Positions 10,348 through 33,550 of a DNA stretch of 33,567 nucleotides are shown here, piece by piece. The notes under the pieces were generated by a model. It was not told the origin of the DNA. It saw only the letters and a list, made by a program, of their open reading frames with translations, and made no database searches. Numbering within the stretch: position 1 is the stretch's first letter; the number at the start of each line of letters is the position of its first letter. Where the stretch lies: positions 1-33,567 of the IMG/VR virus record IMGVR_UViG_3300025292_000002; one strand, given 5' to 3'. This stretch comes from a virus. Taxonomy: Duplodnaviria; Heunggongvirae; Uroviricota; Caudoviricetes. Made by a program: the position numbers and the translations under genes.

Positions 10348-10352
10348 ATCAT

Positions 10353-10425
10353 GTGTTTGTAGCTCAGTTGGTAGAGCAGGAAGCTGTTAACTTCTTGGTC
10401 GGTGGTTCGAGTCCATCCTTGCACG
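10353..10425 (+). tRNA. tRNA-Asn(GTT), acceptor stem imperfect (two U-U), no encoded CCA
   Basis: D arm AGCTCAGTTGGTAGAGC, anticodon arm GGAAG-CTGTTAA-CTTCT, T arm GGTGG-TTCGAGT-CCATC. Confidence 0.75.
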
Positions 10426-10502
10426 TTTAGGAGAATGGAGTAATTTCTTCATTTTCCTCCATTTGATTTGATTTGATTTCCTCCGATGTTTCGGAGGTTT
10501 CT

Positions 10503-10576
10503 AGGAGCTTAGTTTAGAGGTAAAATATCGGTCTCCAAAACCGAGGTCACAGGTTCGATTCCTGTAGCTCCTGCCA
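10503..10576 (+). tRNA. tRNA-Trp(CCA)
   Basis: Acceptor AGGAGCT/AGCTCCT, anticodon arm TCGGT-CTCCAAA-ACCGA, T loop TTCGATT, encoded CCA. Confidence 0.93.
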
Positions 10577-10577
10577 T

Positions 10578-10649
10578 GGGGTATTAGTATAGCGGTTAGT
10601 ATTACTGGCTTCCACCCAGTAGGCGTGGGTTCGATTCCCACATACCTCT
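10578..10649 (+). tRNA. tRNA-Gly(TCC)
   Basis: Acceptor GGGGTAT/ATACCTC, anticodon arm ACTGG-CTTCCAC-CCAGT, T arm GTGGG-TTCGATT-CCCAC. Confidence 0.9.
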
Positions 10650-10654
10650 TTCAT

Positions 10655-10726
10655 GGGGATATAGTGTAGCGGTTAACACACATGGCTGTCTACCATGTAG
10701 CACGGGTTCGAGTCCCGTTATCCTCG
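10655..10726 (+). tRNA. tRNA-Asp(GTC)
   Basis: Acceptor GGGGATA/TATCCTC, anticodon arm CATGG-CTGTCTA-CCATG, T arm ACGGG-TTCGAGT-CCCGT. Confidence 0.9.
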
Positions 10727-10964
10727 TTGTATACTCACACCGCAAAAAGGCGACTATGCGGGCTACGCTGTGGTAGCAATGATAAGCGCTTATCATTGAA
10801 GAAATAAAAGGCACAGAATCGGATGAGATGAGTACATCTGAATCGGGCAAGAAGATGGTTCTTGCTTGTCGTCAAAAAAAGAGCTTAATATGTTTTCTTC
10901 CGCAAGGAAGTTTTCCGTTCAAAAGGCGCTCGAATAAAAAAACGAAACTAACCTTTTAGAATAT

Positions 10965-11041
10965 GGCGCATTGGTGAAGCGGTCTAACACACTCGACTTT
11001 CTATCGAGCATTCAGGGGTTCGAATCCCCTATGCGCTTCCA
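10965..11041 (+). tRNA. tRNA-Glu(TTC)
   Basis: Acceptor GGCGCAT/ATGCGCT, anticodon arm CTCGA-CTTTCTA-TCGAG, T arm AGGGG-TTCGAAT-CCCCT, encoded CCA. Confidence 0.9.
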
Positions 11042-11042
11042 T

Positions 11043-11117
11043 ATAGACGTAGGCTAGAGGTCAGTCACTCCGTTTGGGGCGGAGGTCACGCAGGTTCGAA
11101 TCCTGCCGTCTGTACCA
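11043..11117 (+). tRNA. tRNA-Pro(TGG)
   Basis: Acceptor ATAGACG/CGTCTGT, anticodon arm CTCCG-TTTGGGG-CGGAG, T arm GCAGG-TTCGAAT-CCTGC, encoded CCA. Confidence 0.88.
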
Positions 11118-11118
11118 C

Positions 11119-11191
11119 GCTGAATTAGCTCAATTGGTAGAGCAGCTGATTTGTAATCAGCAGGTTGCGGGTTCAATTCCTGCATTCAGCT
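11119..11191 (+). tRNA. tRNA-Thr(TGT)
   Basis: Acceptor GCTGAAT/ATTCAGC, anticodon arm GCTGA-TTTGTAA-TCAGC, canonical D arm. Confidence 0.93.
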
Positions 11192-29025: not shown

Positions 29026-30009
29026 ATGGCTGTAAATAAAGGAGATAAAATATTTAACCCTGAAACATGGGAAAAAGTAAACCCAGAAAATAGAGCAATC
29101 TTGGACGATTATGTTCTTGAAATGAAATCTAAAGGTAAATCGAAAGGGACAATATATCAATATTCTGCTGATATTAAAATGTTCTTCTGCTGGGCACACG
29201 ATAACGGAAATAAACCAATATTAGATATGAAAAAACGTGAGTTCAGACGTTTCTTCCTTGAAATGAAAGACCGTGGCACATCGGCAGCTCGTGTTAACCG
29301 TGTACAGTGTTCAATTCGTAACCTGTTAGAATTTTGTACTGAAGACGATGACGAGTATGAAGATTACGAAATAAATGCCATGAGAGCTATCAAAGGTTTA
29401 TCTAAAGAGCCTGTGCGTGAAATTCATTTCGTTAAAGATGAGCATGTTCGTGCAATGGTTGAAAAGCTTGTCGAAGCTGGCAAGTATCAACGTGCCTTGT
29501 ACCTAACACTAAGTTATGAATCTTGTGGGCGTAGGAATGAAATGGCACAGGTTTTAAAACACGATTTTTTAGAGAATAATCGTACAAATGAACTTGTTGG
29601 TAAACGTGGTAAAAAATACAAAGCTTTATATTTTGACCGTGCTCGTGAAATTGCTAAAATGTACTTCGAGCAACGTGGTGAGGACGACATTGATAGCTTG
29701 TGGACAGTTGGTAAAGGCGAAACAAAACGCCCTGCAACATACGACAACTTATATCAATGGGCTGTTTCATTGCGTAAAGAGCTTGAAGAAGTTTCTGGAG
29801 AACACGTTGAAATCAATGCTCATACATGGCGCCACAGTGGTTTAGAAAACTATGAAAATGGTACGCACTACGTTTTAAAACAACTTGGCAAAGACAAATT
29901 GCCTTTAGAAGTTTTAAAAGTGTTAGCAAACCATTCATCAATCGAGACAACACAATCATACTTGATGAATAAAGACGATGAGCTTTTAAACACTGCTTTC
30001 GGATTATAA
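29026..30009 (+). CDS. Tyrosine recombinase (phage integrase / XerC-D-like)
   Basis: N-terminal SAM-like domain; catalytic R (GRRNE), K (GKRGK), HTWRH and NHSSIETTQSY. Confidence 0.9.
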   Translation: MAVNKGDKIFNPETWEKVNPENRAILDDYVLEMKSKGKSKGTIYQYSADIKMFFCWAHDNGNKPILDMKKREFRRFFLEMKDRGTSAARVNRVQCSIRNLLEFCTEDDDEYEDYEINAMRAIKGLSKEPVREIHFVKDEHVRAMVEKLVEAGKYQRALYLTLSYESCGRRNEMAQVLKHDFLENNRTNELVGKRGKKYKALYFDRAREIAKMYFEQRGEDDIDSLWTVGKGETKRPATYDNLYQWAVSLRKELEEVSGEHVEINAHTWRHSGLENYENGTHYVLKQLGKDKLPLEVLKVLANHSSIETTQSYLMNKDDELLNTAFGL

Positions 30010-31278: not shown

Positions 31279-31342
31279 TTCTCCTAATATTTATTTGTTA
31301 TAAATATTATAACATGGTCTTTAGAACTGTACAAGATTTATA

Positions 31343-31371
31343 TAAAAAAAATACCGTCATTTAGACGGCAT
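31343..31371 (-). terminator. Intrinsic terminator with the stop of the 48-aa ORF in the loop
   Basis: Minus strand ATGCCGTC-TAAAT-GACGGTAT plus T-run. Confidence 0.78.
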
Positions 31372-31507
31372 TTTTATGTTTTTCTTTTCGATTATAAGCT
31401 TTCTTACTTTTATGGCTACCATTGCCACGATGCACTTTCAAGTGTTGTTGCAATTCTTCAGCATCCATTTTTCGTTTGAAGCTTTTTGGTTTAACAGTTA
31501 ATTTCAT
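31361..31507 (-). CDS. Small basic protein (48 aa), BrfA/ArfA-like ribosome-rescue-factor candidate
   Basis: RBS AGGAGG; MKLTVKPKSFKRKMDAEELQQHLKVHRGNGSHKSKKAYNRKEKHKNAV; below ORF-track cutoff. The ORF is well supported; the function is inference. Confidence 0.6.
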   Translation of the reverse strand: MKLTVKPKSFKRKMDAEELQQHLKVHRGNGSHKSKKAYNRKEKHKNAV

Positions 31508-31629
31508 TTTGTTTCCTCCTTGTTTTTCTTTGATTCGAAAATCCTATCATAACAATCTGGGCAACATCTTTTTAATGTTCTCCACACACAGCCATATACT
31601 TCTGTTCCACAACCGTCACATATATACAT
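31504..31629 (-). CDS. Small Cys-rich Zn-finger-like protein (41 aa)
   Basis: RBS AGGAGG; MYICDGCG...CCPDC; its TGA overlaps the ATG of the next gene (ATGA coupling). Confidence 0.7.
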   Translation of the reverse strand: MYICDGCGTEVYGCVWRTLKRCCPDCYDRIFESKKNKEETK

Positions 31630-31683
31630 ATTATCCTCCTTAAGATAAAAGCTGATAGCCAATGGCCATCAGCTCAATATTAA

Positions 31684-32137: not shown

Positions 32138-32170
32138 AAGCAAATAAAAAAAGATGACATGGCGTCATCT

Positions 32171-32419
32171 TTAGTTTTCGTATGGACGATATTTCTTACG
32201 TAGCTCAACGAGCTCAGCCCTTTTAGCAAACAAATCAGATTTTAAAAACAAGCTAACACATCCTAATTTTTTAACAGGTATTATCTTGCCATTTTTTATC
32301 ATATGTGAAAGTCTAGCTCGAGATATTCCTAAGTATTCTATAGCTTCTGGAGTTGTTAAAACCTCACTCATTATAAACTGTCTTTGTTCTACTACTGGCG
32401 CTTCCATAACTTGTAGCAT
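32171..32419 (-). CDS. Helix-turn-helix DNA-binding protein (excisionase/HTH_17-like)
   Basis: LTTPEAIEYLGISRARLSHMIKNGKI motif. Confidence 0.82.
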   Translation of the reverse strand: MLQVMEAPVVEQRQFIMSEVLTTPEAIEYLGISRARLSHMIKNGKIIPVKKLGCVSLFLKSDLFAKRAELVELRKKYRPYEN

Positions 32420-32845: not shown

Positions 32846-33475
32846 TTATCCCTCATCTTTTTGGAATCGTTGTTCACAATCACCACAAATGACATTAATT
32901 TCAGGTTTGCTGCTTCTGATGATTGTACCACATTCACATACCCATTTTACAATGTTGCTTTTCTTTTTTGCTTTCTTTTCAGCGGTCATATCTTTTCGAG
33001 CTAATGTAAAAGCTTCTTTGTCAATGTCCCAGCTATTAATGAAATCAATTGTTTCAGGTGTTAGCTTAGAAAATGACCAGCCATATTTTTTATCTGGCGC
33101 ATCATCTTCATAATAGAAGCCACGGTCTTCACTTTCTTGTTTGAATTTTTTATTGTGATATGTGCCACCACGAGAAGTATCTTGAATGTCATTTGTGTGA
33201 CAATATAAATGAATCATTTCATGGTGTAATGTTCTCATGATTTCTTCATAATCACGGTTTAAAAATTCTGCTGTGATTGTGATTTCATGTTTTTCATCAT
33301 CTTTTGTTTCCCATACTTTGCCTGGTGTGAACCAACCATACGCACTTGTTTTACCCTTAGCTTGTACAGCGATGATTACTTGAGGTAATGCACCATTATA
33401 GAAATGTTCATTGAACAGATTAAAAGCTTTATGAAGCTCAGCGATTGCTGGTTGTAAGTTATTTATGTTTGTCAT
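32846..33475 (-). CDS. SprT-like zinc metalloprotease with C-terminal Zn ribbon
   Basis: LHHEMIH (HExxH), H...F motif, C-terminal CECG...CGDC; RBS AGGGG before ATG33475. Confidence 0.85.
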   Translation of the reverse strand: MTNINNLQPAIAELHKAFNLFNEHFYNGALPQVIIAVQAKGKTSAYGWFTPGKVWETKDDEKHEITITAEFLNRDYEEIMRTLHHEMIHLYCHTNDIQDTSRGGTYHNKKFKQESEDRGFYYEDDAPDKKYGWSFSKLTPETIDFINSWDIDKEAFTLARKDMTAEKKAKKKSNIVKWVCECGTIIRSSKPEINVICGDCEQRFQKDEG

Positions 33476-33490
33476 GTTTATTATCCCCTT

Positions 33491-33508
33491 TTGAAAATTA
33501 ATATTCAA
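33491..33508. promoter_or_regulatory. 18-bp palindrome (1 mismatch)
   Basis: Between the SigA-like promoter and the RBS of the SprT-like gene. Confidence 0.8.
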
Positions 33509-33521
33509 TTTCGTTAAGTTA

Positions 33522-33550
33522 AATATATCATGGTCGAAAAAATATGTCAA
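33522..33550 (-). promoter_or_regulatory. SigA-like promoter of the leftward block
   Basis: Minus strand TTGACA-N17-TATATT with TGn extended -10. Confidence 0.65.

Follow-up and report, generated by a model that had tools for sequence, protein, structure and literature searches.

A Small Basic Phage Protein of the L5 gp78-like Family with a Tail Resembling the mRNA-Tunnel Segment of ArfA

The 48-aa, very basic ORF designated here as P0001 is a selected protein-coding gene, and profile comparisons place its product as a divergent member of a large family of phage proteins that includes gp78 of mycobacteriophage L5. The ORF lies in a window of 33,567 nucleotides (the whole stretch of DNA analysed), taken from a virus record that is complete at 97.6 kb. 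Hundreds of sequenced phages, the model phage L5 among them, carry small early genes of the L5 gp78 family. Few of these genes have a reported phenotype; L5 gene 78, described as toxic, is one that does. The family itself is known but uncharacterised; P0001 is a new member of it, and the analysis ties a Bacillus phage ORF to L5 gp78. The best-conserved residues of the family coincide with the motif by which the ribosome-rescue factor ArfA occupies the mRNA tunnel of the ribosome. Tentatively, we favour a modulator or inhibitor that binds ribosomes over a true rescue factor, and a basic protein binding some non-ribosomal target is a serious rival to the former.

Position, Signals, and Coding Status of the ORF

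The features of the locus are listed in Table 1. The strong ribosome-binding site of P0001, found as described in the original prediction, sits within the final codons of the upstream Cys-rich ORF, and the TGA of that ORF and the ATG of P0001 overlap as ATGA (31507..31504). Two hairpins bracket both small ORFs. The fold of the one downstream of P0001 has a free energy of -14.9 kcal/mol and a z of -4.9, with none of 200 shuffles as stable, and the claim that the TAA is located inside the loop of a terminator hairpin was borne out by both the scan and the fold. Because the U-run comes after the stop, the transcript of P0001 keeps its stop codon, as had been stated; the C-terminal peptide quoted at that time was also correct.

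Table 1. Features at the P0001 locus, with positions in the window.
Feature	Position	Strand	Basis and remarks
48-aa very basic ORF (P0001), 48 codons and TAA	31361..31507	-	ORF reading; ATG 31507..31505, TAA 31363..31361
Shine-Dalgarno AAGGAGG (GGAGG = 31519..31515)	31515..31521	-	Read from sequence; GGAGG 7 nt before the P0001 ATG
41-aa Cys-rich ORF, CxxC...CxxC, zinc-ribbon-like	31504..31629	-	ORF reading; phrog_6107 at E 5.5e-15
Intrinsic terminator, 12 pairs, followed by U-run; TAA of P0001 in the 5-nt loop	31347..31375	-	Terminator scan and fold
Terminator-like hairpin, 12 pairs (6 GC), just upstream of the Cys-rich ORF	31649..31675	-	Terminator scan
Promoter-like site TGTACA, 16 nt, TG-n-TATAAT	31306..31333	-	Sequence scan; serves the next gene and closes the unit on its 3' side
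207-aa membrane protein, next gene after P0001	30655..31278	-	L002 counterpart carries DUF6241

P0001 is the last gene in a leftward operon of non-structural genes for replication and regulation, with the order topoisomerase, SprT-like protease, 80-aa ORF, HTH_17/excisionase-like ORF, 128-133-aa ORF, Cys-rich ORF, and P0001. Seven tRNA genes are encoded at 10352-11191. They are in the same genome, as the original prediction had it, but about 20 kb away from P0001, and the functional link drawn to them is circumstantial.

A search of 5.8 billion proteins with P0001 retrieved the protein itself and a single homologue, P0002, which is 76% identical and is encoded on a 9.9-kb contig (L002). The two genes differ by 13 synonymous and 13 non-synonymous codons, with dN of 0.17, saturated dS, and dN/dS of 0.066, and in their alignment no second frame is open in both. 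The DNA similarity between the window and L002 starts exactly at the ATG of P0001 and extends through the promoter of the next gene. In L002 the same place is taken by a hairpin of other sequence (-16.7 kcal/mol, z -5.8) whose apex again holds the stop. The gene upstream of P0002 is unrelated and the Cys-rich ORF is absent there; the coupling of P0001 to the Cys-rich ORF, supported by the ATGA overlap, is therefore not conserved in the closest homologue, and the two are translationally coupled in the phage of the window only. A short, lysine-rich frame in DNA of 36% GC that has no Pfam match of its own could be suspected to have arisen by chance between genes, in AT-rich sequence before a terminator. 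This reading is ruled out by the dN/dS value, the strong ribosome-binding site, and the thousands of clusters with homologues, whose E values are as low as 1e-22.

Relationship to the L5 gp78-like Family

Eight loci with 44-48-aa relatives of P0001 were found in a scan of viral contigs. When a profile of these relatives was compared with 1.84 billion representatives, 119 clusters at 50% identity were recognized at E<=1e-3, all of small and basic proteins, and a 102-sequence profile (A4) matched at least 2070 clusters at 90% identity in a larger collection. Most of the best 120 matches among the latter carry a precomputed PF26884 assignment (Phage_L5_Gp78). In the genome of P0001 itself the family profile scores 71.9 bits (E 5e-21). 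With P0001 as its first row, the profile was aligned to L5 gp78 (P0244) by hhalign with a probability of 92% (E 5.9e-7), and in HMMER it gave 24.5 bits for L5 gp78, 34.5 bits for gp84 of phage LHTSCC, and 40.1 bits for gp80 of phage Peaches. Members of the family were located by tblastn in 317-350 phage records, nearly all of them cluster A mycobacteriophages. An independent query of a language-model atlas put PF26884, DUF7230, and an ArfA-labelled cluster near P0001.

P0001 and P0002 have no precomputed PF26884 match on record and are for this reason considered divergent members; the membership of P0001 was assigned with the profile built in this analysis. The model PF26884 was never reported by hmmscan with the local Pfam copy, even for members with a precomputed match, and this copy may lack it. 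Searches of Pfam, NCBIfam, and PHROGs with P0001 gave nothing useful (best phrog_37108 at E 0.026), and a scan of the 102 family members against NCBIfam gave no matches. No match was obtained when P0001 and P0005 were compared with phage records by tblastn, with low-complexity masking as a possible cause.

The similarity to the L5 gp78 proteins concerns size, composition, and core sequence. Members such as Peaches gp80 and LHTSCC gp84 are likewise 40-57 aa long and very basic, and they share with P0001 a putative helix E-(E/Q)-L-x-x-x-L-x-x-R-R-S-x-A followed by H-K/R-N-K/R-K. Also like P0001, they are encoded in operons with non-structural genes. The tail differs, as in the actinophage branch it ends with R-E-M-K-R-P-G-K-G... 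instead of the Y-x-R-K-x-K-H of P0001. The consensus of the family reads ...M-(S/T)-P-E-E-L-x-x-x-L-x-L-R-R-S-x-A-x-x-x-H-K-N-K-K-x-Y-x-R-K-x-K-H-K. Among the 102 members, Y38 is conserved in 99 and R40 in 101, the lysines K35, K36, K41, and K43 in 81-85 (K43 in 81), and H44 in 59, while the exact motif Y.RK.KH is present in 52. The mycobacteriophage branch including L5 gp78 has kept the helix and the RRSNA..H.N.K core without Y.RK.KH, and because of these members the most general feature of the family is not its ArfA-like part.

The family occurs in phages that infect Actinobacteria or Bacillus, on metagenome contigs, and in one Bacteroidota MAG; in representative bacterial genomes the sole relative was found in a Dysgonomonas MAG. 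Weak links suggest that the family is also related to DUF7230 (PF23876) and phrog_855. DUF7230 gave sub-threshold matches in 30 of the 102 members, in the same tail and with a best E of 5.5e-5, but its model did not match P0001 itself. Similarly, phrog_855 (E 1.6e-7) and phrog_2057 were matched by six of nine close relatives and neither by P0001. DUF7230, phrog_855, and phrog_2057 are all families with no assigned function.

In the literature and annotations consulted, no function is assigned to the L5 gp78 family, and toxicity of L5 gene 78 is the sole phenotype. According to PMC7474061, which cites PMID 18667563, genes 77, 78, and 79 of L5 are toxic to M. smegmatis, and gene 78 belongs to those L5 genes whose toxic products are described as early proteins.

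Predicted Shape and Resemblance to ArfA

With 15 K+R and 4 H in 48 residues, P0001 has a net charge of +11. Its tail motif, K-S-K-K-A-Y-N-R-K-E-K-H-K, occupies residues 33-45. AlphaFold2 run with the 102-row alignment predicted one helix at residues 16-26 with extended ends (mean pLDDT 74). P0001 is thus predicted to be a polycation in which a single short amphipathic helix is joined to a basic, extended tail, a shape that fits a peptide folding on its target and does not discriminate between the readings considered below.

E. coli ArfA (P0003) has Y39-x-R41-K42-x-K44-H45, i.e., Y.RK.KH at residues 39-45, and the ArfA motif given in the original prediction was correct against this sequence. 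The family tail K-x-K-x-x-Y-x-R-K-x-K-H-x-N can be aligned with ArfA residues 33-48 without a gap. With filters off, the family HMM gave 9.3 bits for ArfA(1-55), a score reached by 4 of 2000 whole-sequence shuffles (p 0.002) and by 18 of 5000 shuffles of the tail only (0.36%, p 0.0036). In the opposite direction, family members scored a median of 3.6 bits on the ArfA HMM and their shuffles 0.5 bits. ArfA was also the top non-family ORF on the family HMM among about 3,050 unrelated control ORFs; 3,091 six-frame ORFs, including the ribosomal-protein operon region of E. coli, were scored in this control. By these comparisons the resemblance of the tail to ArfA goes beyond composition. Short Lys-rich peptides can resemble the motif by chance, as the original prediction cautioned. 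The HMMER estimate, for a single-sequence E of 1.7e-4, corresponds to about one such match by chance per E. coli-sized proteome. Moreover, P0001 had been chosen for its resemblance, which makes the likeness of this single sequence look more significant than it is; the conservation seen across the family does not depend on this choice.

Membership in, or homology to, ArfA is not supported by the searches. In the profile comparisons with ArfA, hhalign gave a probability of only 5-15% (P 0.002-0.007) and aligned the tail only (ArfA 29-53), and the HMMER alignment spans only ArfA 32-48. BLASTP found no local alignment of P0001 with E. coli ArfA, and the ArfA model PF03889 matched neither P0001 at E<=10 nor any of the six frames of the whole 97.6-kb phage genome. 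Among the 102 family members the model was matched by one, P0120, with 23.2 bits (E 4.6e-5; cut-off 25.5), at model positions 27-44 only; the tail of P0120 has K-G-K-G-S-Y. Searches of the PDB with P0001, its tail, and profiles A3 and A4 returned no ArfA, BrfA, or ArfT chain at E<=10, and with P0120 ArfA chains appeared at E about 1.2. Some further pointers go in the direction of ArfA. E. coli ArfA weakly matches DUF7230, one family member (P0328) is named ArfA by the JGI pipeline, and ArfA is the sole named family in the language-model neighbourhood once the family's own models are set aside, which is to be taken as a lead only.

In E. coli ArfA, the positively charged residues 31-48 fill the vacant mRNA tunnel, and a hydrophobic patch of L19/L24/F25, A18, and the mid-region 21-30 serve to bind the A site and to recruit and activate RF2 (PMC5378476). 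ArfA (YhdL, PF03889), an RF2-dependent rescue factor, is like P0001 a small basic peptide with a structured front and an extended tail. The alignments are confined to ArfA residue 29 onward, so that its RF2-binding N-terminus has no aligned counterpart; residues 1-28, with the RF2-binding minidomain and the A-site mid-region, have no detectable similarity in P0001. The KGKGS loop of ArfA does not occur in the family except in P0120. ArfA is under RNase III and tmRNA control, whereas P0001 is probably outside of both, because its mRNA keeps the stop. ArfA is not known from the Gram-positive host range, in which P0001 is phage-borne. No paper linking the ArfA tail to the L5 gp78 family was found in the literature, and we regard this link as a hypothesis that can be tested rather than as a finding.

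Comparison with BrfA and the Non-Stop Design

BrfA (YqkK) of B. subtilis is an RF2-dependent rescue factor (PMC6881298), and its host clade, Bacillus, is also that of P0001. According to the same paper, a Lys-His pair that contacts the backbone of 16S U534 is common to ArfA and BrfA, where it is K49-H50. The ArfA pair, shared by P0001, was aligned by hhalign with K43-H44, a correspondence at the level of sequence presence only. By its description, BrfA also resembles P0001 in being small and basic and in carrying a basic extension at the C-terminus, and its gene likewise has a terminator hairpin at the 3' end. In brfA, however, the terminator lies inside the ORF before the stop, from which a non-stop mRNA results, whereas the stop of P0001 is in the loop and precedes the U-run. 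BrfA has two N-terminal helices touching h44, H69, and H71, and P0001 one predicted helix. The model PF13025 did not match in the phage genome; we take this model to be that of the YqkK family. Membership in, or homology to, BrfA is not supported by the comparison with its description or by the PDB and PF13025 searches.

A non-stop design of the ArfA/BrfA type is not present at P0001 or in L002, the stop being in the hairpin loop upstream of the U-run in both. Among seven family members with long C-termini, five were examined at the DNA level. Four of them were rejected as non-stop designs, their extensions being read-through artefacts of gene calls with TAG=Q or TGA=W. The fifth, P0058 (63 aa, L024:3001-3192), has under table 11 an ORF that runs through an 8-bp stem and U7 starting at the K-H codons. 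It lies in a Bacillaceae-like chromosomal context between DinB and TatC/TatA, near LexA, resolvase, and DUF896. It is at most a putative brfA-like design, with a fold that is not significant (z -0.86) and relatives that have ordinary stops. With four artefacts, one insignificant fold, and normal stops in the relatives of P0058, the regulatory design of ArfA and BrfA is therefore, as far as seen among the members examined, not a trait of the L5 gp78-like family.

Family members on L027, L028, and L029-L031 come from contigs for which gene calling read TAG as Q or TGA as W, and their long C-termini in protein collections are spurious. Phages with reassigned stops may therefore carry the family as well.

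Proposed Function and Its Rivals

The product of P0001 is tentatively regarded as a ribosome-binding modulator or inhibitor, which would bind a polyanionic host component, most likely the vacant mRNA tunnel; we hold this reading as the leading one, at somewhat below even odds. As an early or accessory phage gene product, P0001 would bind a component conserved across phyla; such a universally conserved target is suggested because the sequence-specific conservation spans phages of unrelated hosts. The best candidate would be the 16S rRNA of the decoding region or of the unoccupied mRNA tunnel of the ribosome, because the tail motif is ArfA-like; K-K-x-Y-x-R-K-x-K-H, the nearly invariant tail, would sit where ArfA residues 31-48 do. 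The protein would be made constitutively during infection and free of tmRNA control, since its mRNA keeps the stop codon. Some points weigh against tunnel binding. The likeness to ArfA is confined to a motif of some 17 residues within a lysine-rich tail and is below normal homology thresholds, and DNA, tRNA, or mRNA would be equally conceivable partners of a basic peptide. If the peptide does bind the tunnel, phages would have in it a new means of sensing or manipulating ribosomes that are vacant or stalled. Otherwise, the ArfA-like annotation given to some members by pipelines (e.g., to P0328 by JGI) should go.

The strongest rival is a small basic nucleic-acid binder with a non-ribosomal target, such as DNA, tRNA, mRNA, or an acidic host protein, whose likeness to ArfA would be due to convergence or chance. 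It is less probable and seems doubtful to us, yet it has to be taken seriously. The extreme composition of the peptide agrees with it, and so does an operon shared with an HTH_17/excisionase-like gene, a SprT-like protease, and a topoisomerase. The core kept in all branches, E-E-L..L..R-R-S-N-A..H.N.K, has no ArfA counterpart, and the homology measures to ArfA are weak. On the other hand, a generic polycation would not need Y38 and R40 to be kept in 97-99% of members from widely different phage groups. ArfA outranks all control ORFs, basic ribosomal proteins included, and the language-model neighbourhood, for what such a lead is worth, names ArfA and, apart from the family's own models, no other family.

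A release-factor-dependent rescue factor like ArfA/BrfA, translated from a stop-containing mRNA and allowing ribosomes to go on cycling while mRNA or tRNA is cleaved by host nucleases, was the reading of the original prediction, and we consider it unlikely. The tail motif common with the tunnel segment of ArfA and the K-H pair common with ArfA and BrfA (PMC5378476; PMC6881298) speak for it. So do the length of 48 aa (family median about 50), which is near the size of active ArfA and BrfA62, and the predicted helix with extended tail. P0120 nearly passes the Pfam ArfA model, the ORF of P0058, running through stem and U7, would yield a non-stop mRNA as in brfA, and the phage has 7 tRNA genes. 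Against this, the parts of ArfA that recruit RF2 (L19/L24/F25, A18, 21-30) are without an aligned counterpart, and there is no match to Pfam ArfA or PF13025 in the phage genome. The non-stop design is absent at P0001 and in the relatives of P0058, whose own hairpin in L024 has a z of only -0.86, and the other long members examined are artefacts of recoded-stop gene calls. Toxicity, as reported for L5 gene 78, would be unexpected of a rescue factor. The extension of this reading to all members seems improbable to a similar degree. In it, the whole L5 gp78/DUF7230 family, with its thousands of clusters, would be a phage-borne counterpart of ArfA/BrfA. Its members would use the Y-x-R-K-x-K-H tail to test for an empty mRNA tunnel, independently of tmRNA, and would either free ribosomes that mRNA- or tRNA-cleaving defences have stranded or secure vacant ribosomes for the phage. 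Because no RF2-recruiting element was recognized and toxicity is reported for L5 gene 78, we favour a product that interferes with host translation or re-directs it as somewhat more likely than release-factor-dependent rescue.

Neighbouring Genes and Other Observations

The extended -10 promoter that serves the gene after P0001 is conserved in L002 around positions 560-590, although the surrounding coding sequences have diverged to 75% identity. Hairpins at 32150-32172 and 31347-31375 have A-run/T-run flanks and a terminator score on both strands, as in the bidirectional type, and all the genes flanking them run leftward. A 327-aa ORF at 29026-30009 on the plus strand converges on the leftward operon. 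It has only weak or faint matches to tyrosine-recombinase domains (Phage_int_SAM_1/4, Phage_integrase), and such an ORF would be unusual for a 97.6-kb phage with a topoisomerase IV-like gene and 7 tRNAs.

Homologues of the 41-aa Cys-rich ORF with 50-80% identity are encoded by the large Bacillus Herelleviridae phages Abinadi, DIGNKC, SBP8a, and BPS13, and also by Wes44; some of the homologous stretches are unannotated there. All relatives of this ORF are in phages of the Bacillus cereus group.

The SprT-like protease at 32846-33550 on the minus strand belongs to the same operon as P0001, and a SprT-like protease is likewise found in the contig that carries P0004. In cluster A4 mycobacteriophages a family member overlaps a SprT-like gene by 4 nt (LHTSCC gp84/gp83, L023:1201-1838). 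LHTSCC gp83 is strongly toxic and co-precipitates ribosomal proteins in a screen that did not include gp84 (PMC7474061). A conserved link of the family to SprT-like genes was rejected and not used as evidence, because no SprT-like gene is present within 3 kb at the other loci. On the short metagenome contig L028, a 63-aa protein with an IF2_N domain match is encoded at positions 215-406, two genes upstream of a family member.
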